Below, one piece after another: positions 2,268 to 49,949 of a stretch of DNA of 52,320 nt. How positions within the stretch are numbered: the stretch's first letter is position 1; each line of letters opens with the position of its first letter. The position numbers were made by a program, and so were the translations under genes. The stretch lies in IMG/VR virus record IMGVR_UViG_3300011336_000270, positions 1 to 52,320 of that record. One strand, written 5' to 3'. This DNA is from a virus. Lineage: Duplodnaviria; Caudoviricetes. The notes under the pieces are model-generated. The model was not told where the DNA came from. It did not search any database and worked only from the letters and a program-made list of their open reading frames with translations.

Positions 2268-3895
2268 TCTCGAAACTAATGGATACGCTAGAGTGGAGTC
2301 ACCCCATGCAGTTGAACACCAAGCGCGGCCCTCGACTCTTGAAGAAGTCACCAATAGGTAAAGCCTTCTGGTCTGTCTACAGGGAATCTCCTGATAAGTA
2401 CAAAGAATTCTTCCGCGAGGTTGGCATGTCCATGACCAAGTTCCGCGATGAGTGGGAACTGGCTTGGTGGTCTGATGATCAGTTAAAGTTCAAGCCGATA
2501 CCTACAGACAAACCCGCCGATGTAGAACCAGAACTAGACTTGTCGGACTTGCCTCCACTTCTCCACCCAGAGGGTTTGCTGGAATACCAGTTGACCAGCG
2601 TCCAGATGGGAGTTCGCTCCATGCAGAAATACAATCGGGTTCTGCTCGGTCACTCTACTGGTGTCGGAAAGACCTTCTGTGCTTTGGGTATAGCTAGAGA
2701 GTTAGGCAAGAAGGTTGCGGTCATCTGTCCTAAACCTATCGTTACCGATTGGCATCGCGCCGCGAAGATGATGGGTGTAGAGACCTATGAAGTCTGTGGC
2801 TGGGAGTGGACGAAGACAGGTAAGAGTAAGATGGGCAGATGGACGGATGATAAGAAGAAACAATTCCGCTTCATGCTCCCAGACGATTGCCTGTTGGTCT
2901 TTGATGAAGTTCACAGAGGTAAGGCACCGGGGACAAGTCAGAATGCTTTCCTAGTCCGAGATGCGGTAGTCCAGAATGTCCCTAGCATTGCATTATCGGC
3001 AACGATAGCGGATGATCCCACAAAACTCTGGGCTATTGGGCAGTTCCTCGGTCTGCATCAGGGAGAAAAGGACTACTTCCGCTTCATACAAAATCACGGA
3101 TGCAGAAAAACCAGATTCGGTTTCCAGTATCATGGATCGGATTCTGTCCTCAAGAAACTCCATCACAAAATATATCCAGATCGCGGGAATCGTCTCCGTC
3201 ACTCCGATCTCGGTGATGCCTTTCCCGAAACTCTAATCCATGCCCGTGCATTCGATATGGATTCGGCGCGGGAGATTGCCAATGAATACGAAGAACTCTG
3301 CAACCGAATTGAAGAACTACGGATGCAAGAGAACTTCGCAATTAACGCTCTTGCAGAACAGACAAGGGCGAGACAAAGAATTGAACTTATGAAATGCGGG
3401 GCTGTAGCTTCACTAACAAGAGATTATCTTGAAGAAGGATGCTCCGTATTTATAGCTGTGAATTTCACGGAGAGCAGAGATTTTTTAATGAAAGAATTAA
3501 AAACAGAATGTTCTATCCATGGCGGTCAAAATGAAATGGAAAGGCGTGGTCACATTGACTCTTTTCAAAATGATAAAAGCCATATTATTATTGGACAAGT
3601 TCAAGCCTGCAGGGAGGGACTAAATCTGCATGACATAAAAGGAAATAGACCTCGCGTTGCTTTAATTATGCCTACGCCTAGCATTTACGACACCAAGCAG
3701 GTATTAGGCAGAGTTCATCGTGCAGGAGGAAAAAGCAAAAGCATTCAATATTTAGTGTATGCGGCTGGCGTCACAATTGAAGAGAATATCTGTTCAAAAC
3801 TAGATGAGAAACTGAAAAGACTCGATTTGCTTAACGATGGTGAAACCGATCCCACAATATCATTACTTCCGAATGAAGAGAAAGAATTGACATAA
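2264..3895 (+). CDS. Superfamily 2 (SNF2/DEAH-like) helicase
   Basis: Walker A HSTGVGKT, motif II DEVH, motif III SAT, motif V EGLNL, motif VI QVLGRVHRAG. Confidence 0.92.
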   Translation: MISKLMDTLEWSHPMQLNTKRGPRLLKKSPIGKAFWSVYRESPDKYKEFFREVGMSMTKFRDEWELAWWSDDQLKFKPIPTDKPADVEPELDLSDLPPLLHPEGLLEYQLTSVQMGVRSMQKYNRVLLGHSTGVGKTFCALGIARELGKKVAVICPKPIVTDWHRAAKMMGVETYEVCGWEWTKTGKSKMGRWTDDKKKQFRFMLPDDCLLVFDEVHRGKAPGTSQNAFLVRDAVVQNVPSIALSATIADDPTKLWAIGQFLGLHQGEKDYFRFIQNHGCRKTRFGFQYHGSDSVLKKLHHKIYPDRGNRLRHSDLGDAFPETLIHARAFDMDSAREIANEYEELCNRIEELRMQENFAINALAEQTRARQRIELMKCGAVASLTRDYLEEGCSVFIAVNFTESRDFLMKELKTECSIHGGQNEMERRGHIDSFQNDKSHIIIGQVQACREGLNLHDIKGNRPRVALIMPTPSIYDTKQVLGRVHRAGGKSKSIQYLVYAAGVTIEENICSKLDEKLKRLDLLNDGETDPTISLLPNEEKELT

Positions 3896-3921: not shown

Positions 3922-4047
3922 ATCGGAGTGAAACCCCGATAACCGTAAGATTAAATTTGAAATGCTAATACAATATCATCCCTTGCATGGTAAAGGTTTC
4001 ACCTGTCATTCAGACAGTCTTACGGCCATGTGAGGGATGTCCTTTTT
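3922..4047 (+). ncRNA. Structured leader RNA, copy 1 (attenuator / C4-antisense-like architecture)
   Basis: Hairpin 3922-3940; long stem 3977-3990/4026-4039 plus U-tract; enclosed GGTTTCAC and TCTTACGG are complementary to upstream GTGAAACC and CCGTAAGA. Confidence 0.65.
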
Positions 4048-4050
4048 ATT

Positions 4051-4908
4051 ATGAGCAAATACGGAAACTTGAAGCGGGGAGATACGAGAGAAGACGGAAT
4101 GATTTTTTGGGCTTACACAGATGGAAAAGAAAGATGGGTGACAAGTGGCAAGTTCGATGAACTAAGGCAAAAAATTTCCGATAATTTCAAGAGAGAATTA
4201 CCTGAAAAAAAGTTTAAGCGCGGGGATCGACGCGAAGATGGGAAAATATTTTGGGCATACAGAAAAACATATAAAAACTTTGAGTGCTGGATGAGTGAGG
4301 ATGCCTACAATAAAGAACTAAATAGGTCTATGGTTTATCTTGCTAATCGTAAATTCAAGAAGCCAAAAATTAAAGTTGGTTTCATGAGGCAAGATGGACT
4401 TGTTTATATGGGATATTATAAAGGATGCAAAAATGGACAGAGATGGGTATCGCCTGAAAAATATGAGTCAAAGAAAAGAAAAGAAAGAAATAGATTTGCT
4501 ACATTATATCACAGCAACGAAGAGTTTAAAAAGAAAGTAAAAGAAAATTCTAAAAATGTTTCAAAAAAACGAATGGCTATTGATCCGCTTTTTAAATTAA
4601 AGGTTCATTGCCGATCAATGATTTCAACTGCTTTTAGTAGAAAAAATTTTACAAAGAGAAGCAAAACGCAAAACATAGTTGGTTGTTCTTTTGAAGAACT
4701 AAAAAGACACATTGAATCTCAATTTAAATCAGGGATGAATTGGGAGAATCACGGAGAATGGCACATCGACCACATAATGCCGCTTTCAATGGCAAAAACC
4801 GAAGATGAGATGATAAGATTGAATCACTATAGAAATCTTAGACCTATTTGGGCCAAAGAAAATTTAGTAAAAGGACATAAGCAAATAAACGATCTTGTTT
4901 TGTTTTAA
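4051..4908 (+). CDS. Free-standing HNH homing endonuclease with three N-terminal GDxREDG repeats
   Basis: C-terminal GCSFEELKRHIESQF...WHIDHIMPLS...LNHYRNLRPIWAKENLVKG HNH motif; AT-rich; ATG 4051 preferred. Confidence 0.88.
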   Translation: MSKYGNLKRGDTREDGMIFWAYTDGKERWVTSGKFDELRQKISDNFKRELPEKKFKRGDRREDGKIFWAYRKTYKNFECWMSEDAYNKELNRSMVYLANRKFKKPKIKVGFMRQDGLVYMGYYKGCKNGQRWVSPEKYESKKRKERNRFATLYHSNEEFKKKVKENSKNVSKKRMAIDPLFKLKVHCRSMISTAFSRKNFTKRSKTQNIVGCSFEELKRHIESQFKSGMNWENHGEWHIDHIMPLSMAKTEDEMIRLNHYRNLRPIWAKENLVKGHKQINDLVLF

Positions 4909-5224: not shown

Positions 5225-6175
5225 TTATTCTCCTCTCAAAAATTGAATCCACTCGTTTTCCGCTGCATCGAACCAGCTTTTGCCTTGCAGGTCGATCAGT
5301 AATTGGTGCGATTCCACCTCATTCGGAACTTGGGTGACGATCTCCGAATTCATCCAGTTCTCGACATTTAGGATCAAAAAGCGGTGAGGCATGGGTTTCT
5401 GCTTCTCTTCTTTGCCTTGGGCTTCCCGCACTTTGCCGCGAACCTCTTGGCTGGATAGCTTCTCGGTCTTCGCCGCTTCGACTAGCTGGGCCTTCTTATT
5501 CTCTGAAAGGTCAGCATTGCCGATCTCACGATAGACCGTGAATGGTAGCATCGCATCACGCTGGGCAGCAGGGAAGGCTTTACAGGCGCGAGCGTAGCCA
5601 GAGACCGTGCTATAAGACTTCTTGAACTGGGCGCACAACTGATTAACTACATCTTCATGCCCAGCATTCTCTAGCGCGACCACCGAATCACCGATGATCC
5701 ATTGGCTACCAGACTCAAGAGTAAGACCGAAAGCGAAGGCTTTCACCCAGTCCTGCATGGATACATCTCCCTTTGGAACGCATTGCGTCATGCCTGCGCC
5801 GAGGTCGAACTTCTGCGTGAAGCTCGAAAGCTCGAGGCCTTGGCTGACACTCTGCACTAGTTCAAGTTTCTCTTTAGATTCTTCTGAGACTTGAGTATCG
5901 GTAACGATAACGGGAGTTTTGTCCGAAGCCAACTCGGAAGCTGATTCAAGATCATACGCCATCTTCTCGTAGAGTTCCGCGACTTCATCAGCCACATTGT
6001 CTTCGATATACTGGTTCTTCTTTACCTTGTCCCAGACCTTCTTGATAAGAGTCTCGGTCATCGTGATGCCCTTCCACTCTTGTTGAGCAAAGGTTAACAT
6101 CTGTTTGAGGTAGGTTGCTTCGTTTACGAGTTGTCCCTCATGGAGAGGGCTGAATAGTTCTAGTTTATTTTTCAT
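5225..6175 (-). CDS. ParB/KorB/LmbU-like HTH DNA-binding protein
   Basis: SQWIIGD...KSYSTVSGYARACKAFPAAQRDAMLPFTVYREIG...QLVEAAKTEKLSSQEVRGKVR resembles the LmbU-family WxxGD...YxTxxxYA...F...R...LxF pattern and the ParB LSxxEV helix. Confidence 0.6.
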   Translation of the reverse strand: MKNKLELFSPLHEGQLVNEATYLKQMLTFAQQEWKGITMTETLIKKVWDKVKKNQYIEDNVADEVAELYEKMAYDLESASELASDKTPVIVTDTQVSEESKEKLELVQSVSQGLELSSFTQKFDLGAGMTQCVPKGDVSMQDWVKAFAFGLTLESGSQWIIGDSVVALENAGHEDVVNQLCAQFKKSYSTVSGYARACKAFPAAQRDAMLPFTVYREIGNADLSENKKAQLVEAAKTEKLSSQEVRGKVREAQGKEEKQKPMPHRFLILNVENWMNSEIVTQVPNEVESHQLLIDLQGKSWFDAAENEWIQFLRGE

Positions 6176-7433: not shown

Positions 7434-8188
7434 ATTGCTTTTGGTTGGTAGTTGTTCATGTGTTGCCAGAGTTTGCATACGCACTTAAACGCCTCAAACT
7501 CTTTGTCTATTGTTGTCTCGTCATACCACGCCTCGCCGATTCTTCCCGGCTCAGTCGTAGAAATGTAGAGGTTTACCCCACGGCGAGCCTCTGCAATCTG
7601 GGCATAAGCCGCAATCTGCATTGGTTCTTTTGACCACGGGGTGATCTTCATGTCTGGCTTGGTCTTCCTGCTCTTGTAATCCAAGATATGCAGGACGCCA
7701 TCTTTCTCTATCAGCGCATCAGTAGTGCCAGCGTATCCCACGACAGGATTAACTAGCCTCAACTCATGCTTGATAAACTTTACTCGGTTGACTGCCACCC
7801 AGTCTTTGACTGGCGCGACATAGACTTCCATTGAAGGATCGTATGGTTGCCCTTGGAAATGTAGCTCAAGAGCTTTGTGGATGTCGGTTCCGAGATCAGC
7901 GGCATCTTTGACCTGCTCGAAAGCATCAGTCATGATGCGGGAGCAGTAAGCCTCATCACTCTCGCCGGGGTTCCGTGTAAGAGTAAGTGAAGCCATCAAG
8001 ACTTGTTGCTGTTTCCAGCGATCAAGTTCTGGCGCGGCCATTACTTTCATCACAGTTGTCGCGCTAGGATACCAGTTAAAGCGTCTCGCATCCCTTAATG
8101 TAGTGGGGCGCGGCTCTCCCTTAGCAGACAAAATGGTATGTCTGGGTTCTCCAGCCGCATCATACCAATGATTTCCTTCTAATGCCAT
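7430..8188 (-). CDS. PD-(D/E)xK (Cas4/RecB-like) exonuclease
   Basis: GTDIHKALE, YAGTTDAL, ILDYKS and QIAAY motifs; start MALEGNHWY at 8188. Confidence 0.85.
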   Translation of the reverse strand: MALEGNHWYDAAGEPRHTILSAKGEPRPTTLRDARRFNWYPSATTVMKVMAAPELDRWKQQQVLMASLTLTRNPGESDEAYCSRIMTDAFEQVKDAADLGTDIHKALELHFQGQPYDPSMEVYVAPVKDWVAVNRVKFIKHELRLVNPVVGYAGTTDALIEKDGVLHILDYKSRKTKPDMKITPWSKEPMQIAAYAQIAEARRGVNLYISTTEPGRIGEAWYDETTIDKEFEAFKCVCKLWQHMNNYQPKAI

Positions 8189-8917
8189 TGTCTTGGTTCT
8201 TTCGTTAATGCTTCGCTTGCTTCCCATCCACGATGCAACCGCATTCTTACCATGTTTGGAGATATGCTTAAATTGTCGCACCATTCTGCCATTGTTTTTG
8301 TTTGTCCGTTCATTGTTATGTTTCGATTGTTTGACCTATTCCTTGCTTGGGTTTGGATGTCAGCCCATCTGCAGTTATCCTTGTTGTAGTTTCCATCGTT
8401 GTTGATTCTATCTATTTGATGTCCTTCTGGACAATCTCCCATGTCTTTTAAGAAGCCGACGAAAGTTTTCCATTCATCGCACACTTGTATTCCACGGCCA
8501 CCGTATCTTGGATACTTGTGATTGTTTGGATTCGTGCATCTCTGAATCATTCCTTTCCAGCTTCTGTATGTCTGCGTGTTGCATCTGTTGTGCTTTGCTC
8601 TTTCCTTTATCTTTTGGACTCTATTGCATCCGCAAGATTCAGTTCCGATCCGAAGCGATTGCGAACATATAATTTTTGTGTTTCCGCAATCACAGCGACA
8701 AACCCACTTTGCTGGGCTTCTGTTTGTTCCCGCTGAATGCAGGGAAATCACTATTAGTTTCCCCTGTTTTATCCCGATCCAGTTCTTGCGTGTTGTTTTT
8801 CTTTGGCCTTCCGCCAAGTTTTCCATTGGCTCGACTTGCGCTTGCTTTGGCTCCTCCGCTGACTTTTCCGCCACGCTTTCCGATGCTTGATAGGTATTGT
8901 TGAATATGCTCATTCAT
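8179..8917 (-). CDS. HNH homing endonuclease, probably one gene with a +1 frameshift at about 8796-8800 joining an N-terminal NGKLGGRP segment
   Basis: WVCRCDCG, TYRSWKGMIQRC, YGGRGIQVCDEW and IDRINNDGNY...NCRWA motifs; overlapping ORF 8690..8917 supplies the ASRANGKLGGRPKK N-terminus. Confidence 0.75.
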
Positions 8918-13000: not shown

Positions 13001-16000
13001 ATCGGTTATCGGTTTCTGTGGAGCTTGTTTTGCTGGCTTCTTGGGTGGCTCCTCGCCTCTGCCAAATGTCACCGCGCCTCGCTCACCCTTACCGGGGAGG
13101 TAGCCTGCCATCTCTTCTAGCTTCGCAGGGAACCCACTCACCGCTTCCCATACATCAGCGAGGAACTGGCGCACCGCATCACCGAACCTTTGCACCATCT
13201 GCTTGGCCCAAGACCCGAACTCCATCCCTGCCTCGTAGATGTTCTGCCCTGCTTGGATCAAGTCTTCCCGTGATGGGATTAGGACGCCACCTGCTTCCCT
13301 TTTGCGCTTAGATGGCGTCAATGGGGCCGCTCTATTTACTTCTTTGTTTTTGAATCGCAGGAATGGATCAACATTTGATTCAATGTAATATGCTGGATTT
13401 TCAATTACATCTTGCTTAAATTCATTTGCTGGCACAGACATGAGATCGTCAATAATTCCCTCATATCTTTGCGCCATTTCTTCACGCCCAGCCTTGCGTT
13501 CTACATCAGCTTTCTTTTTGTATCTTCCGACTTCTTTATCTCGCTCGCGCAATGCTTCGTCAGCAAATTTAATAGCTTCTGCATTACCTTCGGGTGCTGC
13601 TGGCGTTATCGTTTCCGATACTGCGGGGGCTTTAGATAGTATTGTTCTGTCGTAAGCATTAACTAATTCAGTTTCATCACTTGAAATTTTTTCTCTAATT
13701 CTATTTCGGGCTGCGATGGCATTTGCTTTTCCCGCTGATCCACCAATAGCCTCACCTAATGATGCGTAGTTCTGCAATTCTTTCAGTGATCCTTCATATT
13801 GAATTATTGCTCTATCAAGAATTTCGTTATCACCATAAGCAGCTAAAGCATTTTTTATTTTTTCTTTCTTATTTTTTTTGTTTTGTGTTGAAATTTTTCT
13901 TTCTTCCAACAAAGATCGCAATGTATTTTCAATTTGAAGTGGCGTTTGGATTTCCACATCATCCATTACTCGCTTTATTTCAGCATTAGTAATTTTTGAT
14001 GTTTTTTTTCTGGCGGAAAGGTAGCTGGCTTTCAAGCCAAAAAGAGGTGTGTTTTTCCTAACGAGTTTAGAAAAGTTTGGAATCTTATCTATTTCAGCAA
14101 GTGTTTCTGGAGGGACAATCGAAAGAACTTGTTCTTCAATAGTAGGCGCAACCTCTTCGGCGGGTGCTTCTGTTACAGCAGGAGTCTCGGCTACGGGGGC
14201 TTGATATACATAGACATCGCCTTGCTTGGTGTAGCCTTCAGGGAGCGGGACATTATTAGATTCTACAACTGCGGCAGATACTGGTTGAGGGCTTACATCT
14301 TTGATAAATCCTTCAGATTGGAACGCTGGGCCTGTTCTGACTCTGCCATTTTCTAATGTGTAGAATGTTCCTTTCTGTGAAACCTTAATATCATTACCCT
14401 GTATATCCTTCCATACAATAGGGTCAGCTTCTGGGGTTATTGTTTCGAGTAGCTGGGAGCGATACTTTGGCAGCAATTCATTATATCTTGCCTCGTCTTT
14501 TTTAGAAAACTTGACTCCCTTCACTTTGCCTTGCGCTTGTCCTCGCCTTTCCATCAAGTTCCTTAGTTCAGCGAACTCAACTTCCTCTACAGGCGCAGGC
14601 TTGACAGCGGGAGCCTCGGCGACTGGTGGTGCTGGCCTGCGTCGGACTCCTCCAAACGCATCATACACACCTGTCTCCCCACCATATACCATCCCAGCTT
14701 CTTGCTCTGCAATGCTTGGGATTGTCGGCCTCGCGAGTTCTTTTGGCAGCCTAGCTGGCTTCCTAGTTGCCGCGCCAAATACATCAAACACCCCCGGCTC
14801 TCCTCCGTATGCGGCCTCGGCGGTCTGCTCCTCAATGCTTGGCATCGCTGGAAGCCTTACTTTCTTTTCGGCGGGTGCAGCAATCTCTTTGGCTAACTCA
14901 ATCTGCTGTTGCTCGGCGGTAGTTATCGGTAACGATAATCCAGTAGGCAGAGTCTCGTTGATCTTGGTAATCTCATCGGTGTTATCAACGATAGTTTGCT
15001 GGGCAGCCTTCCCTTCTTCAGACTCAACTCCAAACTTGTTGATGATAGCTAGAGAATCTTTGTTCTCTTGCTCTAGGATATTTGCTTTATCTAAATTAGC
15101 GCGAACTTCTGGATCATCTACAGGAATGGAAAGATCACGGGATTCAAGGTCAGCTTCTTTCTCGATGTCCACTTGTTCTTTCTGAAGCGGACTCATCACG
15201 ATAGTCGCACCACCAGCAGATACGCCACCGATCAATGCTTCGCCTAGCGCGGCCTTGGGTTGAATCTCTAGTCCCTTCTCTGTGAGAATAGTTTCGCCTG
15301 TTTGCTGGGCTAGTGCTTGCGCCCCTTCGGTAGCTCCCTCGCCAAGGAAGGATGCCGCGATTCTTTTGGTCAAAGCACCAACTGCCTTCTCTCCACCGGG
15401 AAGATACTTCGTTCCAATAGCATTCAGCGCACCGCTAGTCCCTGCTGTAGTCCAAGCATAGGCCAAGTCTTCGCTATTCGGGATTTCTCTACCATTGTTC
15501 TTGGCTCGTTCTTGGGCGACTGGGCCGACGATCTGTGCAGCCTCAAACAATGCTGGGCCAGTAAACATACCAATACCTGCACCAACTGCGGTTCCAGCAC
15601 CGGGAACTACTGAGCCAGCAGCCCCGCCAATGACTCCGCCAGCAGCCCTAGATGCGACACTACCTGCTAGTTGTCCGACCTGTTCAACGATAGCGCGAGG
15701 TAGATATTGGAAGGCAAATCCTCCGAGTTGAGCTTCGCCAGCTTGTGGTTCCATGAATCTCTGTGCCGCTGGAACATAGCCTTCTGGTTGTTCTACTGCG
15801 CCTTTAAGTGCAGCACCAACTGCTGGCATACCAAGAGTCTCGGCGGTAACGCCCATCGCTTGCAATGGTTGAGCGATGCCAGATTTAAGCGCGGCTCCAA
15901 GCTGAGATACTTCTTGTTCTACCGAAGTTCCTGCTGGTTCTTCAACAAGTTCAAATGGAAGATTGGGATCAAAGCCAACCTCCTCAACTTCCTCGAAAGG

Positions 16001-18906: not shown

Positions 18907-19868
18907 CTAGGTTGAAAGAAATAGTCATCCGCACTCGGAGAGCCAAGATAATTCCCAATTAAATTTTCGGGTCGCTGGAAGTTTGCAATACGAAGCGGTG
19001 CAGCAGTAGGGATCTCTGCTCCCTCCATCTCCTTCTCCTGCTCTTGCACAGCAAGCGATAGGTTGGCCAAGAACTCTTGCGCCTTACGATTCTCACGCGA
19101 GTTCAATGCAAGAACCGCATAGATCATTGCGTCCGCATTAAACTCTACCAGTTCCTTTGGATCGACGAGATCAAAATATTTCTTGGATGCGTAAAGCGTA
19201 ATGCACTCGCAGGTTCTTGGAGCTTTGAACCTACGGAATGTTGGATTGGCATCGTTAGGCTGGTAGATTGCAATGAGAGTCTTTGCTTCCAATGCCGTGT
19301 CGTAGGCATACACCCGAATCCTGCCTTTGGTAATCGGCTTGGTTACTGCGCGAATTCCCTTAACAAGAAGATCGGATTTCGCCAGCGTTGGAGGATTAAC
19401 AGTAGTTACCTTAATCTTATGGTATGTGTCATACTGGTCTTGAGCTTCAAACATTAACTCTACGCCGATGTCTTCAGCCTCTTCTGCCATTACCCCGATT
19501 TGGTATGGATGCGTGGTGTAGTCTCGGAATAGGACATGAAGTCCACCTACCTCAACTATTCCTCTATGGCATGACTGGTCTGCTTGGAGGGCGTAAGAGT
19601 CGGTTGCGTTGAACCATTCGTCAGCCAGAGATGCAGGCCGATTACCGATCCAAGCAAGTTTGATTTGCTCATAGCGAGATGGAAGCGTGAAGCAATCATT
19701 CACGCAGCAGATTTGGACATACTCTTCTTGAGTAGTCCAAGCCTTCTTATTCCATAAAAGTCGTCGTGCTTGGTTTACAGCTTTAACGGCTCTGTCGTAT
19801 GAACAGACACCGCTATCACCAACGAAGCCCTTAACGACTTCTACCATCTCATCGAGGGTATCAGCCAT
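18897..19868 (-). CDS. Head-tail adaptor / tail tubular protein A-like
   Basis: N-terminal helical bundle (TLDEMVEVVK...AVNQARRLL), beta-rich middle and C-terminal helices; synteny. Confidence 0.6.
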   Translation of the reverse strand: MADTLDEMVEVVKGFVGDSGVCSYDRAVKAVNQARRLLWNKKAWTTQEEYVQICCVNDCFTLPSRYEQIKLAWIGNRPASLADEWFNATDSYALQADQSCHRGIVEVGGLHVLFRDYTTHPYQIGVMAEEAEDIGVELMFEAQDQYDTYHKIKVTTVNPPTLAKSDLLVKGIRAVTKPITKGRIRVYAYDTALEAKTLIAIYQPNDANPTFRRFKAPRTCECITLYASKKYFDLVDPKELVEFNADAMIYAVLALNSRENRKAQEFLANLSLAVQEQEKEMEGAEIPTAAPLRIANFQRPENLIGNYLGSPSADDYFFQPSWP

Positions 19869-19883
19869 TATCGTTAACGATAA

Positions 19884-20613: not shown

Positions 20614-22612
20614 TGTAAATAGCGTAATCCCAGTATCTTTCGGGACAACAAATTTCAGCGCATTCTTGTTGGTCTTCTGGGCAATCACCAATAGGCGAGT
20701 CTTCGTTGTTCTTGATGTTTGCCATTATACGAACCCTATCCACAGTAGCCACTCCAGTCAAGTTGATTTTCAGTTGAAACTCACTACCTTCTACTGACGG
20801 GATTCCTGCTATATTATTACACTCAGATGGATCTGGCGTTGTGAACTTGTAGCGTTTATATTGATTGCCTCCACGCCTTGGGGTGCAAGTATTAATCAAA
20901 GTTGGGGAGCATGGGTTGCATCCAAAGGTCGTTGGAACTTTTAGCTCCGACCAGCATGGGTTGCTATCCGACCGATACTCCACTTGGCTAGTCACCTCGC
21001 CGGGGATGTCACTCATCCATATTTCTCCACCAGTAATTTTCTTGCGAATGAACTTATTTGTTAGTCCGCTCTTGTTGAAGTCGTATCGCCCAGTCGTAAT
21101 AAAGCTCTTGATCTTGCTAGTCCCATACGGCCCGTAGTCATCACTAGATGAGTTCGTTATTTCATACAGACGATTTTTTTCATCTTGGTCAAAGCTAAAT
21201 CCGAATCCACGCTTCTCTCCGTCAATCATCGCGGTCAGTAATTGAGTTGGACGGAAGCCTGTCCATAGTCCATTCCAGCGAAAGGTAAGATCGGCATCAG
21301 GTGACGGACTAGCAGTTTGATCCAAGTCGAGTACAACCATACCCCTGTGGTATCTGTGTAGTCCTCTTGCGTTATTCTTCTTTGTCTGTGGCGCGACTGT
21401 ACTCACCAAATAGTTGTTGATATACATTGTCGAGGCGAATTGCTTCAACCACTTAGTATCCAAATCAACCCACTTGTTTACCTCGCGGGATAGTTTTCGC
21501 AATGAGAAGAATCTACCGAACTCCGATTGGCTGTTGGAATAGAACGCCCAACCATCGTGCGAGCGGAACCAAAGTTCACTATTAACTAGAGAGACATGAG
21601 GGCTAGTACATCCGCGACCTAGAAGAGATATGCGCTGGATGTTCGATGTGTTCCATAATGCTCTTGGTATACTGACATCCATCGAGAATGCGCCATTCGT
21701 TGTAAGGACTACTAGCTCGCCTTGACCTCGTAAGTTTCCGCCGATGTATGGCATTACTTTCATCGCGGTGATCTCTCCCATCATTGCTGGAGTCGAGAAC
21801 GCTCCGCCCTCTGCCCAGTATGTAATCTCAGTGAAATTCTGGGTATTGGTAGTATCGGTAAATCCAGCCCCGAAGATAATGTCCGATGCATAGATTTGAT
21901 TAAATCTGTCCGAAACAAATACACGACCAAAGGCATATTCCATGATCGTGCCAATTGGCATCTGACCCTTGCTAGGATAAAGCCTATACGCAGGCATAGC
22001 CACAGTCCCAGTTCCAGTCGCTGGGCCATTTGCCGTGAACTTAACGCCAACCGTATTTGATGGTGCGCCGATCAGAGTATAATCAGTAGTGCCTACCGTG
22101 ACGATCTCGCAGTAGGTATTCTTGGTAATGAGTGTAGCTGACACCGCTCCGACTACGCCGCCCCATGCTATGGCATACTGGTATCCGTTCTGTATGTAGA
22201 CTCGATCCTCTGCTTGCACGAACCATGTGTGCATTAGTGAAGCGTCATTCCAGTCAGTCAGTCCCGACAGAATGTATGCTGTTGCGTAGTTATTGGTGAT
22301 ATGCAGGAAGTATATCTTCCCTGATACAGAAATAAGCAGCCCGTCTCCCAGAGCCGCTTCGTTAACTTTACGGTATGAATATGCTCCTTGAAAGTTGCCG
22401 GTCTGAATATCGTTAACGATAGTCTCTGGCTGGCCTTTCCCAGCAATGATATTCAAGTTCCGAATGCTCGGCCTTGTCTGGTTGATTCCACCGCGAAAGG
22501 TGCGGTTGACCGACTCAGCTACATAGAACTCTGGCAGATAAGACGGATGAGTATCCGCGTCTTGAGCGACAATACTTGTGAACCCATCAAAGACTGATCC
22601 TTCAGTTGGCAT
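20606..22612 (-). CDS. Tail nozzle / tubular protein B-like (beta-propeller)
   Basis: 668 aa, beta-rich; GRVFVSD...IYASD and LGRGCTSPH motifs as in P22 gp10-like stabilisation proteins; synteny. Confidence 0.65.
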   Translation of the reverse strand: MPTEGSVFDGFTSIVAQDADTHPSYLPEFYVAESVNRTFRGGINQTRPSIRNLNIIAGKGQPETIVNDIQTGNFQGAYSYRKVNEAALGDGLLISVSGKIYFLHITNNYATAYILSGLTDWNDASLMHTWFVQAEDRVYIQNGYQYAIAWGGVVGAVSATLITKNTYCEIVTVGTTDYTLIGAPSNTVGVKFTANGPATGTGTVAMPAYRLYPSKGQMPIGTIMEYAFGRVFVSDRFNQIYASDIIFGAGFTDTTNTQNFTEITYWAEGGAFSTPAMMGEITAMKVMPYIGGNLRGQGELVVLTTNGAFSMDVSIPRALWNTSNIQRISLLGRGCTSPHVSLVNSELWFRSHDGWAFYSNSQSEFGRFFSLRKLSREVNKWVDLDTKWLKQFASTMYINNYLVSTVAPQTKKNNARGLHRYHRGMVVLDLDQTASPSPDADLTFRWNGLWTGFRPTQLLTAMIDGEKRGFGFSFDQDEKNRLYEITNSSSDDYGPYGTSKIKSFITTGRYDFNKSGLTNKFIRKKITGGEIWMSDIPGEVTSQVEYRSDSNPCWSELKVPTTFGCNPCSPTLINTCTPRRGGNQYKRYKFTTPDPSECNNIAGIPSVEGSEFQLKINLTGVATVDRVRIMANIKNNEDSPIGDCPEDQQECAEICCPERYWDYAIYNG

Positions 22613-25789: not shown

Positions 25790-25833
25790 AATTTTATCGT
25801 TAACGATAGTTTTTCTTTATTTATTTGCAAGCA

Positions 25834-27333: not shown

Positions 27334-27554
27334 TTATCCTTTAGTAGTTTTGGTTTTGTTATCTTGAACTGATCCCAAGCATATTTCATTGAATCGGTTG
27401 GTTCTTGTTCTTGGGTGGAATTTGGAATGTAAGCGTAACTGACATTTATCTTAACTTTTCCTAGCTGGCCAATATGTTCTCCAAACGGAGGAATCGGAAT
27501 AGTAACGCATGAACAGAGAAATAATGCAAGGATTATCGTTAACGATAGTTTCAT
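27330..27554 (-). CDS. Lipoprotein, possible spanin component
   Basis: Signal peptide with lipobox-like LFLCSC; located in the lysis cassette. Confidence 0.6.
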   Translation of the reverse strand: MKLSLTIILALFLCSCVTIPIPPFGEHIGQLGKVKINVSYAYIPNSTQEQEPTDSMKYAWDQFKITKPKLLKDK

Positions 27555-28017: not shown

Positions 28018-29373
28018 TTATGTGCCAGCAGTAATTTCCACAGCATCCACGCTAGCCACCCAACGCCATGTTTCTGCTGCAATCCCAGTGCATTCAACTT
28101 TGAGCGCATCGTTTGTATCATTAGCAGATAATGCAATACTGGTTCCCGCTGCGTTATCGGTTCCGATAGTCACAGGCGCATAAACTTCAGTTGTGGTGAG
28201 CGCGATATTTTTAATGGCATACTGACGCAAATAGTGGGCGACTGCACTACCATCACTCTTAATTCCAGTAATGTTAATCGTGAATGCAAATACTTTACCT
28301 GTAGGAATAGAAAGTCGTTGGCTTGAGCCATCAAGGAATAATTCTACGGCAGAATTTGTTGTTGTTTTATTCCGCATCACAAATCGCGCCCGCTGCGCGT
28401 CTCCTACAATAGAGAATTTTCCAGAAGCGTGAGACTGCTGCCCGTAGCGATCTACCCGTGAACCAAATCCCCCAAGTGCCGCACCGAAGTCTGCATAAAT
28501 TTCTTGCTCTTGTCCTCCGCAAATTGCGGAAAAATCTCCAGATGCAAGATTATATCTTCCTCCTCCAACAAACGCGTATTGGTCTTCAGTCGTGTTTTGT
28601 TGTCCGCCAACTACCGCACAATATGACTCAGTTCTTGTGACATTTGAAGTACCACTACCAATAAATGAGTATCCAGCTCCAGCAGAGTTTTGAAGGCCTC
28701 CGCAAACCACATCATCCACATTGGTTGCAGCATTTCGCTCGCCAGATAGAACTCCAGCATTTGCTCCGCTAGCAACTTGAGTGGCTGCGTTTCTTGAAAA
28801 TTGTAAATCTACAGCCCTTGATCCGCGAGCGTTACCACCAGTCACGGTTCCGTCTGGTTTTGAACCGGCAATAATTGCCCCCGTTCCTTTAGGAGTCAGA
28901 ACTATGGAAGAATTTGTCTGTCCAGAATGTTGATTTGTAATTGCAACATTATTCTGGGTTACTGTTGTCGCATCATCAATTACAAGATCAGAATTTTGCA
29001 GCGTCGCACCACCAGTTCCATCCGCGCGAAGGATGGCATTATCAACTGATCCAGTCGTGATTGATGATCCTGCGCCAGTTGCGCCTTGCGGCCCAGTTGC
29101 GCCCGTGGCTCCTAATCCCGTGGCTCCTGTCGCGCCAGCACTTCCTGCAGTTCCAGTCGCGCCTGTAGCTCCAATTCCTGTAGCCCCAGTTAATCCCGTT
29201 AAGCCTGTAGCTCCTGTGGCTCCTGTCGGGCCTCCAGATGGGCCGATTGGGCCAGTTGCACCTGTAGCTCCAGTTCCTCCGCCGCCACCGCCAGATTGCG
29301 CTGCAAGATAAATTTGGTATAACTGACCGTCTTCAGTTAATGCGGCAAAACATTCTTTAGAGTCAATTGGCAT
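28018..29373 (-). CDS. Collagen-like fibre with beta-roll repeats (possible head fibre)
   Basis: Gly-X-Y (GAT) repeats at about 29070-29280, then GG-x-x-N repeats ([16 protein letters not shown]). Confidence 0.8.
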
Positions 29374-29610: not shown

Positions 29611-29628
29611 AGATTATCGTTAACGATA

Positions 29629-30240
29629 TTAGTAGTAGATTCCGATGGCGAAGGCGTTGACTTTAAGTGCGCCAACTCGTCCAGCAGTATCAGCACCAGA
29701 AACCACATTAGCACCAACATTCTCGTAGGTGAAGGTTGTCGAATCTACAACAGTCACGCAAGCGTCCACAGCGTTGAAGCTGGAATCAGTCATCGAAGCG
29801 ATGGTGATAAGGTCGCCAGTAGTGAAGCCGTGAGCAGCACCAGTCACGATGGTAGCAACACCATTCGTACGAGCGCGGGTGGCTGTAGCCTGACCAAGAC
29901 CAACAACAACTTTCTCAAGTGTGAGGGTGTCTGTTCCACTAACAGTTGGGACAGGGTTGGCAACGAGAGCGAGGTAATTCGCTCCACCAACATTGTCGAG
30001 AGCGTCAGTAATAGTGAGGGTCGATGTGATCGCATTAGTTCCATCGGTGGCGCGAACTTGAGGGTCGGTGGCCGTGGTTCCTTTTGCGTATGCAGTTTCG
30101 AGGATAACACTCTGGACGAGGAAACGAGTGTCCTGATCGTTGAGACGAACGAGAACAGCGTTACCAGCCTCCAAGAGGTTGATGGTTTGAGGGCCGAACA
30201 TAGCGACCCGCTGTGGGATGATTGGGCGTCGATTAGACAT
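29629..30240 (-). CDS. Putative capsid decoration / minor capsid protein
   Basis: Follows the MCP; ATIVTGAAHGFTTGDLITI...FTY beta module frequent in virion proteins. Confidence 0.6.
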   Translation of the reverse strand: MSNRRPIIPQRVAMFGPQTINLLEAGNAVLVRLNDQDTRFLVQSVILETAYAKGTTATDPQVRATDGTNAITSTLTITDALDNVGGANYLALVANPVPTVSGTDTLTLEKVVVGLGQATATRARTNGVATIVTGAAHGFTTGDLITIASMTDSSFNAVDACVTVVDSTTFTYENVGANVVSGADTAGRVGALKVNAFAIGIYY

Positions 30241-32342: not shown

Positions 32343-33635
32343 CTACGCGCTCGCAAGATTGCGGCCAGATGGTGAGAACCTCGCCAGCTTTGCCGCCAGT
32401 CCCTCAGTCACATTCATCCTCCGTTGCTGAGATTCTGAAACGCGGGGAGTCGAGTCCACACGCGATGCTCCCTTGAGCTTCCCGATGTAATCGTCTTTCT
32501 CTTTCACCATTTCTTGAAGTGCCTTAACTTGTGCTTGGAGCTTCTTGTATGCTCGACCTTGGTTGATGAGTCGGTTCATGTCATCTACAGATGCTTCCTC
32601 GCTTGATTGCTGGGTGGCAATAAGTGCAATGGCGTCATCTTTCGATGTGTCGTATTTAATTCCCTTTTCCTTCATATAGGCAACAATGTCATCAGAGATG
32701 CTGGACTCTTGCTCAATCTCTGCTGCTTGCTGCTTATAGCTATCGTGCCATGTGTTTATGAACTTGGTTCGCGCTTCCTGTTCCTTACGCTTTGCGGCGT
32801 TTTGGATTTCAGTCTTTGTCTGCTGGTAGTTGATGAGTGCTTCGGAGTGGCGTTCAGTTGCATCAAGGTAGTCTTTGATGTAATCCGCGAACCTTACTTG
32901 CTTGAAGGTTCCCAAGCTGTTTGTGATTTCCTCGAAAGCCTCATCGCGCTCGCGGATGGATGCCTGCCTATCATCTTCGTTCGTATGGTGGTAGATCGCT
33001 CCGTTTGCCGCGATTGCCCGCTGGAACAATGATTGGAGTGTGCTGTCGTTTCCGACAATCTCCCGCGCCGAGTTATAGCTTTGCTTGATCGGTTCAAAGT
33101 ATTGCTTCTGGAAATCGGGATTGCTGGTCAGATCATGGAAGTCCAGCTTACCGCGAAGGTCTGCAATTTCCTTTGATAAGTTTGCCTCTAATTGAGCTTT
33201 CTCCTCGTTCGCTTTATTGAGTTGGGCTTGGTAGTGGTTAGCCTCTGCTGTTGTCGAGGAGTTCTGAACCAATGCTTCAAGCTCCGCGATTTTCTGCGTA
33301 TACTTCGGAACTTCGTCCTTCTTGAACTTCTCCAACTCTTCTTTGAGTCGGCGGTTCTCCTCGATCTGCTTTTGAACAAACCCAGATTTCTTGATGTTCA
33401 AATCTTTCTTAGGCTCGTTATCGTTAACGATAACTTCAGATTCATCTTCGATTGGCTCCTCTTCTGATTGGCGCATACCAATCATTGGGTCGCCGACATT
33501 GGTTCCGCTTGGCTTGCCGTCATCGGCTTGCTGCTTGCTGAACTTGGCAAGGAAGTCTTTAGTGTTCCCTTTGATAGGAACCTCTGGCTTGCTTGTTAGG
33601 TCTTTGATGATTTCTGCTGTGGTTTGTTCGCTCAT
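32343..33635 (-). CDS. Capsid scaffolding protein
   Basis: Acidic, long coiled coil; lies between portal and MCP. Confidence 0.7.
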   Translation of the reverse strand: MSEQTTAEIIKDLTSKPEVPIKGNTKDFLAKFSKQQADDGKPSGTNVGDPMIGMRQSEEEPIEDESEVIVNDNEPKKDLNIKKSGFVQKQIEENRRLKEELEKFKKDEVPKYTQKIAELEALVQNSSTTAEANHYQAQLNKANEEKAQLEANLSKEIADLRGKLDFHDLTSNPDFQKQYFEPIKQSYNSAREIVGNDSTLQSLFQRAIAANGAIYHHTNEDDRQASIRERDEAFEEITNSLGTFKQVRFADYIKDYLDATERHSEALINYQQTKTEIQNAAKRKEQEARTKFINTWHDSYKQQAAEIEQESSISDDIVAYMKEKGIKYDTSKDDAIALIATQQSSEEASVDDMNRLINQGRAYKKLQAQVKALQEMVKEKDDYIGKLKGASRVDSTPRVSESQQRRMNVTEGLAAKLARFSPSGRNLASA

Positions 33636-36396: not shown

Positions 36397-37097
36397 AATA
36401 ATTTACTTCCTTTTTTAAGGTTTTCGATGGCCCACAATGGTCGCAGATTCGTGTAATGATTCAAGCGCAAAATTTGTTCTTCAGATTTTGCTGAAGCCAA
36501 TGGAACAATGTGGTCTATATGCCATTCGCTGCGATTATCCCAAGACATATTCGGTTGGAATTGAGATTGAATATGGTTCAGAAATTCATTGAATGTGCAT
36601 CCAAGTATTTCTTCGGTTCTATTCTTTTTAATAAATTTTCTTTTTCTCAATGAAATTCCAATAAGATTTCTTATATCTTGGCTGGCTTTAAAGAGAGGAT
36701 CGCAATTCCTTCTTTCATAAAAATATTGGTTAAGTCGATCTTTATTCTGCTCTCTATATCTTTTTTTATTTAGCTTATTTCTTTCTTGATTGGAGGCATT
36801 CCAGTCCCTTGTTCTTTGTTTCAGCTTTTCCGAGTTTTTTGAGTAATACTCCAGATGATATTCTTTTAATTTCTGCTTGTTGTTTTGCCTGTATGAAGCA
36901 TCTTGTTGACGCTTCTTATCCTTATTATTCTTTGTCCATCTCGCTTGCTTAAGCCTTGCTTTTTCGAGTCGCTTTACATACTGCTCTGGAGTTGACCAGT
37001 ATTCTGGATTTTTTCGTTTGTGTTTATATTCGATAAATACCATTCCATCCTCGCGGACATCTCCCATTTTATATTTTATTGGATTGGCAGTAATCAT
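36381..37097 (-). CDS. Free-standing HNH homing endonuclease (paralog of 4051..4908)
   Basis: GDVREDG N-terminus; LGCTFNEFLNHIQSQF...WHIDHIVPLAS...LNHYTNLRPLWAIENLKKG. Confidence 0.88.
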   Translation of the reverse strand: MITANPIKYKMGDVREDGMVFIEYKHKRKNPEYWSTPEQYVKRLEKARLKQARWTKNNKDKKRQQDASYRQNNKQKLKEYHLEYYSKNSEKLKQRTRDWNASNQERNKLNKKRYREQNKDRLNQYFYERRNCDPLFKASQDIRNLIGISLRKRKFIKKNRTEEILGCTFNEFLNHIQSQFQPNMSWDNRSEWHIDHIVPLASAKSEEQILRLNHYTNLRPLWAIENLKKGSKLLCQFK

Positions 37098-37113
37098 TAT
37101 CGTTAACGATAAA

Positions 37114-40216: not shown

Positions 40217-40612
40217 ATGGATAACCACAACAGCAACATAGATTTGGACATGACAGCATTCAAGTTTCTTGAGCTTGCTCGAAAGTCCGTTCTGATAACA
40301 AATATGTCTCTCGCTGAAGCGATGGGACAAGGAATCTTTTCGACTCACGAAGTCTTCAATGGCGATGGAGGCTATATGATTATGGGAGTCCGGCCAAACT
40401 CTACCGCGCTCGCAGCGACCTACTCTGGCAAACGAATACTCTGGTCTGAACTCGCCCTAATCAAAGACGAAGACCTAGAACTCCATCACAAGCTCCATGC
40501 TGTAGACTGCCAAGATGACCATATGTCTGATCTCACTTGGACAAACCTCGTCGATCAAATCGAAGAATGGGTGAAGTGCGAGCGTGAGGAGATTGACCTA
40601 GATTATCGGTAA
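40217..40612 (+). CDS. Hypothetical protein
   Basis: ATG 40217 lies 8 nt after the -10 box. Confidence 0.7.
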   Translation: MDNHNSNIDLDMTAFKFLELARKSVLITNMSLAEAMGQGIFSTHEVFNGDGGYMIMGVRPNSTALAATYSGKRILWSELALIKDEDLELHHKLHAVDCQDDHMSDLTWTNLVDQIEEWVKCEREEIDLDYR

Positions 40613-40619
40613 CAATAAA

Positions 40620-41511: not shown

Positions 41512-42282
41512 ATGAATATAGATTTAATCCATGGAGATTGCTTGGAGAAGATGCGAGATATTCCAGACGGTAGCATTGATATGATTCTATGCGATTTGCC
41601 TTACGGAACGACCGCCTGCAAATGGGACAGCGTGATACCCTTCGAGCCGCTTTGGGAGCACTACCGTCGAGTCTGCAAGCGCAATGCTGCGATTGTGCTA
41701 ACCGCATCGCAGCCGTTCACATCTGCTCTTGTGATGAGTAACGCCAAAGCATTCCGCCACGAATGGATATGGAAGAAAGACAAAGGTGGAAACATTGCGT
41801 CGCTAAAACATCAACCCTCGAAAGTTCACGAAACCATTTTGGTGTTCGGGTTTGAGCCTTCTAGATATAAACCACAGATGGAAGTCAGACCGGAGTCCAA
41901 CAGGCGAAATAATGCGCCAAGAACAAACCATGTCGGCGTGCAAGGCGAGAAACCTTTTAGAGTGGAGCACAGTCGCGGAGCAGACGCGGTGAAGTACCCG
42001 ACGAGTGTGAAGGAATATAATAGCGTGCGCGGTGGAGTCCACCCTACCCAAAAGCCAGTCGCCCTAATGGAGTATCTAATCCGAACTTACACCAACGAAG
42101 GCGAGACGGTGCTTGACAATACTATGGGCAGCGGGACGACTGGCGTAGCTTGCGTGAACACCAATCGCAACTTTATAGGGATCGAAATGGACAAAACATA
42201 TTTTGAGATAGCCAAAAAAAGAATACAGCAAGCTAAAGAAAATTTAGGGCTGTTTATCGGTAACGATAAAAATAATTATTGA
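41512..42282 (+). CDS. DNA methyltransferase (N6A/N4C, beta class), copy 2
   Basis: GDCLE, DLPY, HPTQKP and MGSGTTG motifs. Confidence 0.93.
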   Translation: MNIDLIHGDCLEKMRDIPDGSIDMILCDLPYGTTACKWDSVIPFEPLWEHYRRVCKRNAAIVLTASQPFTSALVMSNAKAFRHEWIWKKDKGGNIASLKHQPSKVHETILVFGFEPSRYKPQMEVRPESNRRNNAPRTNHVGVQGEKPFRVEHSRGADAVKYPTSVKEYNSVRGGVHPTQKPVALMEYLIRTYTNEGETVLDNTMGSGTTGVACVNTNRNFIGIEMDKTYFEIAKKRIQQAKENLGLFIGNDKNNY

Positions 42283-43529: not shown

Positions 43530-44804
43530 ATGAAACCAAAACTAGTCCGCAAATGGGAAGAACTCCCTCCTGAGAAATCAGTCCCAATCCGTAGCAATAC
43601 CGAACAAGCTGCCTTGTCTCTTATGATTCAAGACAACGAAATACTTTCGACCCAGAAGTGGGATGCCTCGTATTTCGCCATAGAGAACCATAGATTGATT
43701 TTTGAAGCACTCCAAGGGTTCCATAGCCGAAATGGCATCTGCGACGAATTTACGCTCATTTCAGAGCTTGAGAACAGAGGAACACTTTCTCACATCGGAG
43801 GAGATCATGTAATCCATGACATCCTAAAGTGTATGAATATTCCATCTGGTAAGGTTTGCCAAGACATCGCCAATGACTACAGGAAGGAACTTCGTGAGGC
43901 TAAAATCTACCGCGATCTGATTCAGAAATGGGAAACTATGGAGAGGGACATCCGTAGAGGAAGCGCGGAGATAAACGAATTATCGTTAACGATAGAATCT
44001 ATTTCACACGATGGATCTGCCGCAAAAAGAACCAAGAAGGATATGCTCAACCAGATCATCGACGAGATGGAAGGCAAGAGTAAGCAGGAGTGCTTTGGAA
44101 CTGGATTGTTTAAACTGGATCGTACTCTGAAAGGTGGAATGCACCGAGGAGAACTAATGACAGTAGCCGCTGAAACTGGTGGTGGAAAATCCATTCTACT
44201 AGTCCAATCTGCTGTAGCAAATCTACTAGATGGAAAATCAGTTCTCTTCTTCTCGCTAGAGATGTCTGGAGAAGATGTGTTTAGGCGTATGGCAGCAAAT
44301 ATGGCTGGTGTTCCAATCCGAGAAATGGAAGAATATAAATCAGAATACGGAAGAGAACTCCCTAAAGTTTCCAATGCCATCGGAGAACTTCTTAAGATGA
44401 ATATTTCTGTAGTTGATTGCCTTTATGACATTGATGAAATTGAATCTGAAATCTCAAGAGCAGTATCAAGCAAAGAGGCAGATGTGATTATTGTCGATTA
44501 TCTTCAAATCATCAATATGCCAGAGAATGACAATAGAGAGAATGCAATTTCCGAGGCAGCTAGAAGGCTGAAGAACGCAGCAGGAAAGAATAAATCAGTT
44601 ATCCTGACAGCTTCACAACTTAATGATGATGGAAAACTGCGTGAATCTAGGGCTATTGGTATGCATTCTGACCAAGTTGTGCATATCGAACACCTCAAAG
44701 AAAAGAGCAGAATAGTAGTGAAAAAGAACCGCCGTGGCCCAAGAAACTACATTATTGATGTAAAAATGAACGGTGAACTATCTAAACTGGAGGAAGTCTG
44801 GTGA
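43530..44804 (+). CDS. dnaB: DnaB-like replicative helicase
   Basis: AAETGGGKS, FSLEM, IVDYLQ, SQLN, LRESRAI and KNRRGP motifs. Confidence 0.93.
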   Translation: MKPKLVRKWEELPPEKSVPIRSNTEQAALSLMIQDNEILSTQKWDASYFAIENHRLIFEALQGFHSRNGICDEFTLISELENRGTLSHIGGDHVIHDILKCMNIPSGKVCQDIANDYRKELREAKIYRDLIQKWETMERDIRRGSAEINELSLTIESISHDGSAAKRTKKDMLNQIIDEMEGKSKQECFGTGLFKLDRTLKGGMHRGELMTVAAETGGGKSILLVQSAVANLLDGKSVLFFSLEMSGEDVFRRMAANMAGVPIREMEEYKSEYGRELPKVSNAIGELLKMNISVVDCLYDIDEIESEISRAVSSKEADVIIVDYLQIINMPENDNRENAISEAARRLKNAAGKNKSVILTASQLNDDGKLRESRAIGMHSDQVVHIEHLKEKSRIVVKKNRRGPRNYIIDVKMNGELSKLEEVW

Positions 44805-45560: not shown

Positions 45561-46105
45561 TCTATTCCAAGATCGCGCCTTTACCTACGCACAAATATGT
45601 CTTGGTGGATTCCAACTTCACACACAAAACTCCCTGTGGATTTATTGAAGCCATGTGGGTCGGAGTCACAAGCATCCCCGGAAGAGCATGGGGAATCAAT
45701 GTCATTCTGCGCGATGGTGGTGCTTTATATCGCAACCTCCCTCCTCATAGCATTTCATTTGGTAAAAATGTTTGTATGGCATGGGGCATTCAGAATGCTC
45801 AACTGTGGGACTGCTACTCCTACCACTTCACAATCGTCCAAAGCTCAATCCTGCGAGGTCTGCGGATGCGAGCTAAAGTCAAAGGAGAACTCCTAGCGGG
45901 AGAATACTTATTCCATGTAACCCATCTAAATGATGGGTGGTCAGACTCCCCAGACCAAGATAAAGAGTTTTACTTTATCAAGTTAGACAATGGCAGGATA
46001 ACAATCCAGCCTACGAATAGAATCACATTTATAGATTCCAGCTTTATCGTTAACGATAAACTCCCAGAACTTAAATTGAGCGAAACCATATATTCCTGCG
46101 AATGA
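45557..46105 (+). CDS. Hypothetical protein
   Basis: Coupled ORF; GALYRNLP...QLWDCYS...QPTNRI. Confidence 0.75.
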
Positions 46106-49746: not shown

Positions 49747-49949
49747 AAGACGAAATGGAAAAAAAATACAAAGAGCATAGCGAGATGCTAAGTAGAATAG
49801 CTTCATTTGTAGATGACTGGGCGAGGAATGAAAACGATAGCACACTATTGTGTGTGCTTCGTGCAGTCCAGCAAGCCCACTTCTCTAAGGCAGAAATGCT
49901 GCAAAAATACATAGAGATGGAAGAAGAATTATCGTTAACGATAAAATGA
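49743..49949 (+). CDS. Hypothetical protein
   Basis: ATGA-coupled at both ends. Confidence 0.6.
   Translation: MKDEMEKKYKEHSEMLSRIASFVDDWARNENDSTLLCVLRAVQQAHFSKAEMLQKYIEMEEELSLTIK

Follow-up and report, generated by a model that had tools for sequence, protein, structure and literature searches.

Proteins of the ParB family act on dispersed arrays of DNA sites in plasmids and chromosomes, where sliding or spreading driven by cytidine triphosphate (CTP) explains their action at a distance. Noc reads palindromes of 14-16 bp scattered over a replicon as a dimer, and KorB has 12 OB sites on plasmid RK2. KorB is described as a CTPase sliding clamp whose long-range silencing needs CTPase activity together with KorA (PMC11790492), and LmbU as a homodimeric helix-turn-helix (HTH) regulator that has a palindromic target, carries an auto-inhibitory domain at its N terminus and dimerizes through Cys12 (PMC6510168). 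Here these systems are compared with a locus of a tailed phage (Duplodnaviria; Caudoviricetes), IMG/VR record IMGVR_UViG_3300011336_000270, of which the whole 52,320 bp (the window; 99% complete by CheckV) were analyzed. The phage encodes a 316-amino-acid (aa) protein, P0001, and carries 17-19 copies of a 16-bp palindrome, spaced about 3 kb apart both within genes and between them. The evidence favors, with moderate confidence, a reading in which P0001, as a dimer with an LmbU/ParB fold and without a CTPase domain, would read this genome-wide array of sites.

A preliminary description of the record, made from the sequence alone, had named P0001 the best candidate reader of a dispersed palindrome, and the palindrome itself is well founded. 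Allowing up to 2 mismatches, the 16-bp word TTATCGTTAACGATAA has 15 matches in the window against 0.01 expected, a number that none of 100 shuffles attained. Counting inverted repeats de novo gives TATCG-N4-CGATA as the conserved unit, present in the window as 17 exact copies where length/4^10 predicts 0.05; the extended palindrome is TTATCGKW/WMCGATAA. Among relatives the arms are constant and the center varies (TTAA, GTAA, GAAA, TAAC and others). Pooling the window with 61 loci that carry a homologous gene (L001-L061; 529 sites, equal to 1058 half-sites) yields the half-site (A/G)-T(70%)-TATCG-K(99%)-W(91%), with the TATCG core in every site counted. The strong preference for K and W next to TATCG indicates that the 'spacer' is also partly read. 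With the core pattern read backwards as the control, the 61 loci (1,103,771 bp) hold 512 sites against 2 for the control. Counted over whole records, sites number 17, 24, 27, 22, 31 and 29 in G001 to G006, respectively, and 9 in G008, the control giving 0 in each of these seven.

The placement of the sites shows selection at the level of DNA. Copies in coding sequence occupy two of the three reading frames, and the copy within the P0001 gene falls in codons of a disordered linker. Site positions are kept (within 20 bp) for 5 of 11 mappable window sites in G004, 5 of 8 in G011 and 2 of 9 in G006. Spacing is also more even than random, with a coefficient of variation of the circular gaps of 0.45 in the window (P 0.0004) and even spacing again in the relatives G004 (P 0.001), G011 (P 0.006) and G006 (P 0.024). 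Reading frames, linker location, kept positions and even spacing together mark the sites as DNA-level features, and the sites are real. They are enriched between genes (5 of 17, against 6.1% non-coding DNA; P 0.003), and the centers of 6 of 17 lie at most 60 nt upstream of a start codon, a zone that makes up 8.2% of the genome (P 0.0017).

This last enrichment, together with two sites whose last A overlaps the A of ATG, could also be expected if the repeats were RNA or single-stranded-DNA hairpins (7-bp stem, 4-nt loop) serving translation control, RNA processing or replication, with the protein unrelated to them. All four sites that were folded give -5.1 to -8.5 kcal/mol (z -2.4 to -3.3). Such hairpins nevertheless seem improbable, since the arms are fixed rather than co-varying and the retention of TATCG, K and W throughout the pooled half-sites fits protein read-out, not stem maintenance. 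Furthermore, no Rfam family (and no tRNA) was found in the window, and at least 8 sites lie deep inside genes, on either coding strand.

The gene for P0001 and the array of sites occur together. A homologue is present in all eight array-bearing records that are at least 96% complete (G000-G006 and G008), which supports the proposal of the preliminary description that gene and palindrome belong together, and at least 2 sites are found in 61 of 61 gene-bearing loci. In G006, with its 29 sites, the homologue is 36% identical to P0001. The most distant case is G008, a complete 48.8-kb phage with terminal repeats that is very remote from the window phage; by tblastn and six-frame phmmer, the two have in common the putative portal, terminase and exonuclease, two marginal matches of small open reading frames (ORFs) and the P0001 homologue (L205 1465-2145; 226 aa), which is 29% identical overall and keeps SYSTVS. 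The window proteins found in all of G004, G006 and G008 are only P0001, the portal and the terminase, plus a marginal match (9e-4) for 37114-37530. Eighteen gene-less records, each retrieved by one exact 16-mer, were also checked: the seven with a completeness of 82% or more contain 1-2 sites apiece, and six are 34-67% complete fragments with 7-13 sites. Among the records examined, no near-complete genome has the array but lacks the gene. Further searches for relatives returned one locus, G006, with alignment A4 and none with A5, A6 or A8; a scan of a single metagenome with A9 gave a 2.7-kb fragment, a scan with the G008 portal gave nothing beyond G008 itself, and a contig scan added one doubtful 28-residue match.

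A different reader of the palindromes could account for part of this pattern. They might be recognized by a host protein or by a fast-evolving phage protein, such as a repressor of the XRE type, with P0001 acting as an ordinary local regulator of a few targets of its own. The window does encode an XRE-type HTH protein (39802-40263), and two of the objections gathered below, the restriction of most co-occurrence to one phage lineage and the lack of a nearby site in G008, would suit this explanation. It is considered rather unlikely, as the identical half-site in G000, G004, G006 and G008 calls for a conserved recognition surface, and neither tblastn nor phmmer detects the XRE protein in G006 or G008. 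This protein also has local inverted repeats of its own beside its gene, at 40110 and 40179. The 1-2 sites in seven unrelated phage records at least 82% complete further argue that the word is not general in phages of these samples. Other proteins tried as readers were rejected as well: the two methyltransferases are both missing from G004 and G008, the replication initiator is missing from G004, G006 and G008, and the HNH/endonuclease VII nucleases were dismissed on phyletic grounds. The 'two-part system' of the preliminary description gains from the phyletic profile of P0001, from the co-occurrence of gene and array and from a predicted symmetric dimer, while the binding of the sites by P0001 is a step that we infer.

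The gene lies on the minus strand (5225..6175) and encodes all the peptides by which it had been recognized (WIIGD, YSTVSGYARACKAFP, LPFTVYREIG and KKAQLVEAAKTEKLSSQEVRGKVR). Structure models assign its central domain to the ParB/Noc-type HTH DNA-binding domains at the level of the fold, and sequence does so indirectly. A first model (22-row alignment) reached a predicted local distance difference test (pLDDT) score of 78.6, with ParB, Spo0J and Noc as the top Foldseek rows (E 0.11-0.2) and Z up to 9.2 in VIA. In a second model, built from a more diverse 45-row alignment (pLDDT 85.9), ParB and Noc again came first in Foldseek (E 0.08-0.4). All top 10 rows of VIA-align on this model, spanning its residues 153-258, are ParB, Noc or Spo0J (Z 9.7-10.8; root-mean-square deviation 2.4-3.4 Å over 92-101 residues). 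Of the 105 residues in the Noc DNA-binding-domain chain 6y93_A, 101 were aligned, with SopB at Z 6.6-6.9 and unrelated rows near Z 5. A search of 48,161 chains independent of Foldseek placed a ParB DNA-binding domain first (Z 7.6), followed by the Rubisco factor Raf1 (7.3), with the DNA-binding domains of KorB and SopB at Z 5.4. By sequence, Pfam HTH_ParB has no match in P0001 itself; a relative, P0213 (E 6.1e-5 to P0001, residues 135-253), passes HTH_ParB in the same segment (26.3 bits, cut-off 22.6). A PDB sequence search found Noc as the best match of the A2 profile (E 0.1) and nothing with A1.

In addition to this structural kinship, the NCBIfam model LmbU_fam_TF (NF038070) matches residues 137-272 of P0001 (model positions 9-142 of 171; E 1e-9, 38.6 bits) and is matched at E<=1e-3 by 66 of the 117 aligned family representatives, the best at 1.1e-40. 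Judged from sequence, the P0001 family is a distant branch of the LmbU regulators and not a member by the NCBI criterion. The ParB/KorB/LmbU-like family call, originally made from motifs, is upheld by the LmbU-family match and by the ParB/Noc-type fold (Z 10-10.8). At E<=1e-3, P0001 has 690 homologues, which clustering at 50% identity reduces to 123 representatives, and among the 120 listed none has a Pfam domain or a name other than 'hypothetical'. Direct scans of P0001 gave a best Pfam E of 0.02, below the cut-off, and 0 PHROG families. In 3 of the 117 representatives, DNA-methyltransferase domains follow C-terminal to the HTH domain, fusions that would fit a DNA-targeting module. Against GenBank phages, tblastn gave no match for P0001 even at E 10 (tool filtering possible), nor for P0213, P0147 or the capsid-like protein 30594-32009, pointing to a lineage with no cultured relatives.

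P0001 most likely forms a symmetric homodimer, as predicted by a model scoring 0.71 (runs 0.70, 0.71 and 0.71; best control 0.00). In calibration, 20 of the 30 proteins whose structures were solved as pairs attained this mark, as did 1 of the 23 solved as single chains. The runs share at least 80% of contacts, with a partner pLDDT of 74 or more and a symmetric interface. The predicted interface has helix 140-170 as its core and also involves segment 123-133 and the C-terminal domain; residues 188-200 of the recognition helix are not named in it. Segment 123-133 lies within a small conserved segment (residues 98-136) that contains FxxKFDLG...CxPKG. The N-terminal domain has no Pfam, PHROG or Atlas match, and an Atlas search of residues 1-136 returned no usable match. 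This domain is missing from the 226-aa homologue of G008, a phage whose sites are unevenly placed, a single case that would hint at a link between the N-terminal domain and regular spacing.

The clamp module of ParB proteins is missing. As had been noted from the letters, P0001 has no GxxRxxA motif; the pattern G..R..A is absent from P0001 and from 45 of 45 members of alignment A7, and the first 195 residues of P0001 contain no Arg. In six frames of the genome, ParB_N (PF02195) has no match at E<=1, controls being detected, and a six-frame family search found no HTH_ParB. The reported absence of ParA is likewise confirmed, AAA_31 ParA (PF13614) having no match in six frames; CbiA (PF01656) has one sub-threshold P-loop match (12.9 bits) inside a helicase gene. 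Lacking the N-terminal CTPase domain of ParB, P0001 cannot act as a sliding clamp driven by CTP, and, with no ParA in the phage, protein and sites are not a partition system. A true ParB partition or CTP-clamp system, in which a centromere array and a spreading ParB would serve a plasmid-prophage lifestyle, is accordingly very improbable despite the ParB-type DNA-binding fold and the 16-bp palindromes that recall it, its defining features being already refuted. The PHROG scan of 61 ORFs also found no integrase or partition match, and these ORFs show no sign of lysogeny.

The surface expected to read the sites is highly conserved. The recognition-helix region of P0001 is SYSTVSGYARA (residues 187-197), and Y[SP]T[VI]SGYAR occurs in 61 of 62 proteins, with V at the fourth position in 60; the proteins of L002 and L003 read SNYAR. 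In L002-L005, four loci with a helix ending in ...YART instead of ...YARA, 6 of 86 half-sites have the form TTCTCG, against 5 of 1024 elsewhere (Fisher P 6e-5), a difference that, on sequence comparison, may possibly reflect a shift in specificity.

Local regulation of the P0001 gene has a less certain basis. The palindrome copies that had been reported within the gene (5895-5910) and upstream of its cluster (9966-9981) are both present, and TTGACC lies about 18-19 nt beyond the latter site on the minus strand, where the -35 box had been proposed; a sigma-70 scan, on the other hand, gave no promoter there, and a strong terminator (10016-9985) stands just before the site. Host signals may differ from the E. 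coli type, since a Shine-Dalgarno-like motif is found in 6 of 44 ORFs of at least 100 aa. Leaders are A-rich, and the scarcity of such motifs would fit a host with little use of them, such as Bacteroidota. The suggestion of potential autoregulation fared poorly, as the in-gene site is confined to the closest relatives (L001-L005) and the proposed promoter was not confirmed. Most other relatives have, instead of the in-gene copy, a site about 480 bp upstream of the gene. Consistent autoregulation is not supported.

Several observations weigh against the pairing of P0001 with the array. P0001 passes no curated cut-off, its 38.6 bits standing against 125 required for NF038070, and the Foldseek E-values of its models are no better than 0.08-0.4. 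Recognition helix and half-site are essentially invariant and never vary together in the data examined, and the ...YART loci enriched in TTCTCG are four closely related ones only. In G008, every site is more than 5 kb away from the homologue, and the 9 sites are not evenly spaced (P 0.47). Co-occurrence is found mostly among relatives, which are not independent, with G008 as the only truly distant case. Seven gene-less records are rich in sites (7-13 each: G011, G016, G018, G021, G025, G026 and G028); all are incomplete (34-67%; G011, with 13 sites, is a 58% complete fragment), so that they neither support nor refute the pairing.

If P0001 does read the array, it could act as follows. The conserved helix 140-170 and the beta domain at the C terminus would join two chains into the homodimer and leave the two recognition helices free, and each dimer would read one copy of TTATCGKW/WMCGATAA. 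Without a CTPase, the dimer would stay at its bound site instead of sliding as KorB does; held stably at fixed points, it could serve as a genome-wide, phage-specific regulator and organizer. At the start-proximal sites, about a third of the total, a bound dimer might control expression as LmbU and KorB do. Sites inside genes that are evenly spaced suggest an additional role, possibly architectural or in self-marking. A tentative extension, more doubtful than site reading itself, is a phage 'self-chromatin', in which clamp-free dimers at evenly spaced sites every 2-3 kb, with the N-terminal domain bridging or recruiting partners, would organize the DNA of a lytic phage, mark it as self or shield it while it is replicated, recombined and packaged.

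Compared with the described systems, the likeness to LmbU lies in the homology of the central domain, in an HTH flanked by an extra N-terminal domain, in the homodimer (predicted here, reported for LmbU) and in the palindromic target (PMC6510168). In contrast to LmbU, P0001 is encoded by a phage and not in an antibiotic gene cluster, its match to the family model is low, and its 16-bp inverted repeat recurs 17-31 times per 50-kb genome, where the 8-bp CGCCGGCG is described in a few promoters (PMC6510168). The N-terminal domain of P0001 is unrelated to that of LmbU by the searches made, and the predicted interface differs from Cys12. The KorB/OB system of the IncP plasmid RK2 shares 16-bp palindromic operators dispersed on one replicon, some near promoters and some distant, in the service of global regulation (PMC11790492). 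KorB also has a ParB-type DNA-binding domain (1r71_A; Z 5.4, 109 of 114 residues) but, unlike P0001, it carries a CTPase domain. Noc with its NBS sites and ParB/Spo0J with parS offer the best structural matches to P0001; both, however, are CTP-dependent spreading clamps, Noc tethering DNA to the membrane and ParB working with ParA, and such parts are absent here.

Scattered sites read by one phage-encoded DNA-binding protein are known from the stoperators of cluster A mycobacteriophages and the centromere sites of the phage-plasmid N15, which number tens or several and also lie inside genes. Stoperators are asymmetric, oriented with transcription and read by the immunity repressor of a temperate phage, and N15 uses SopA/SopB partition. 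The sites described here are instead symmetric and evenly spaced, in a phage without ParA and with no sign of lysogeny in the ORFs scanned. The literature searched gave no description of a phage protein, LmbU-like or with a ParB fold, that goes with an array of palindromes across the whole genome. Here the DNA-binding fold of the ParB family occurs with no clamp module in uncultured phages of a widespread lineage, together with an evenly spaced array that is kept even in genes. If the pairing is true, a large 'hypothetical' phage family gains a function, the LmbU family is no longer confined to the antibiotic clusters of actinomycetes and gains a structural tie to ParB, and one protein with one 16-bp word offers a simple system for asking why phages tile their genomes with docking sites. 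The positions of the domains and sites are collected in Table 1.

Table 1. Coordinates in the window of the P0001 gene, its predicted domains and the palindromic sites.
Feature	Position	Strand	Remarks
P0001 gene, LmbU-like/ParB-fold HTH protein	5225..6175	-	ORF, 316 aa; homologues; LmbU_fam_TF E 1e-9
N-terminal helical domain, residues 1-84	5924..6175	-	structure models; without known family
Disordered linker, residues 85-97	5885..5923	-	structure models; pLDDT <50; holds in-gene palindrome
ParB/Noc-type HTH DNA-binding domain, residues ~137-258	5402..5767	-	VIA (Z 10-10.8; root-mean-square deviation 2.4-2.8 Å over 92-101 residues), Foldseek, LmbU model, dimer model
C-terminal five-stranded beta domain, residues 262-316	5228..5392	-	models; part of predicted dimer interface
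TTATCGGCAACGATAG	2993..3008	.	inside helicase gene
GTATCGGTAACGATAA	5895..5910	.	inside P0001's own gene, linker codons
TTATCGGTAACGATAA	9966..9981	.	intergenic; after terminator 10016-9985, 20 nt before first gene of the minus-strand cluster ending with the P0001 gene
TTATCGTTTCCGATAC	13606..13621	.	inside 1977-aa virion protein gene
Site	14923..14938	.	inside 1977-aa gene; position kept in G004
Perfect site	19868..19883	.	abuts start codon of gene 18897-19868; position kept in G004, G011
Site	22407..22422	.	inside gene 20606-22612; position kept in G004, G011
Site	25794..25809	.	6 nt upstream of tail-spike-like gene 24218-25789; position kept in G011
Site	27533..27548	.	16 nt inside small gene 27330-27563
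TTATCGGTTCCGATAG	28154..28169	.	inside gene 28018-29373
Site	29614..29629	.	in 255-nt intergenic gap upstream of gene 28018-29373
Perfect site	33418..33433	.	inside gene 32343-33635; position kept in G011
Perfect site	37097..37112	.	abuts start codon of HNH gene 36381-37097; most widely position-conserved (G004, G006, G011)
Near-site TTATCGGTAACAATAA, 1 core mismatch	40603..40618	.	3 nt upstream of methyltransferase gene 40620-41384
Site	42254..42269	.	end of methyltransferase gene 41512-42282
Site	43980..43995	.	inside DnaB-like helicase gene; position kept in G004
Perfect site	46044..46059	.	about 44 nt upstream of start of gene 46102-47214
Perfect site	49929..49944	.	3 nt upstream of dCMP deaminase gene 49946-50338

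The remainder of the genome is that of a tailed phage. PHROG matches include a DnaB-like helicase, an O-like replication initiator, a PD-(D/E)XK exonuclease, an endolysin, two DNA methyltransferases, tail fiber and spike proteins and the 1977-aa virion protein. Gene 33871-36396, which has no PHROG match, is a candidate portal gene by size and position, and the terminase is likewise a candidate, labeled from a weak PHROG match (8e-4) and from one long ORF in relatives. In the window the large terminase comprises two ORFs on the plus strand (37529-38638 and 38737-39381; 369 and 214 aa) separated by a 98-nt gap, and both pieces match one ORF in G004 and in G006; a frameshift, an intron or a real split could be responsible. 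Near-identical phage contigs (L363 and L364) occur in metagenome-assembled genomes labeled Candidatus Woesearchaeota (a whole 51.8-kb contig) and Chthoniobacter (9.7 kb), labels that are probably due to mis-binning and, at most a host hint, are not usable to name the host.

The tandem paralogous methyltransferase genes (phrog_67; 40620-41384 and 41512-42282, plus strand) each have a site or near-site at their edge, and genes of this type number one in G006 and none in G004 or G008. Three HNH/endonuclease VII-type genes, 36381-37097 (minus), 4030-4908 (plus) and 8179-8913 (minus), have no counterpart in G004, G006, G008 or G011 and are probably mobile homing endonucleases; the first of them is flanked directly by the portal gene and by the palindrome whose position is most widely kept (37097). 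Two local inverted repeats, CAATAGC-N9-GCTATTG at 40110-40132 and ATTGAC-N2-GTCAAT at 40179-40192, lie in or beside the XRE gene; they differ from the dispersed word and may be the operators of the XRE regulator.

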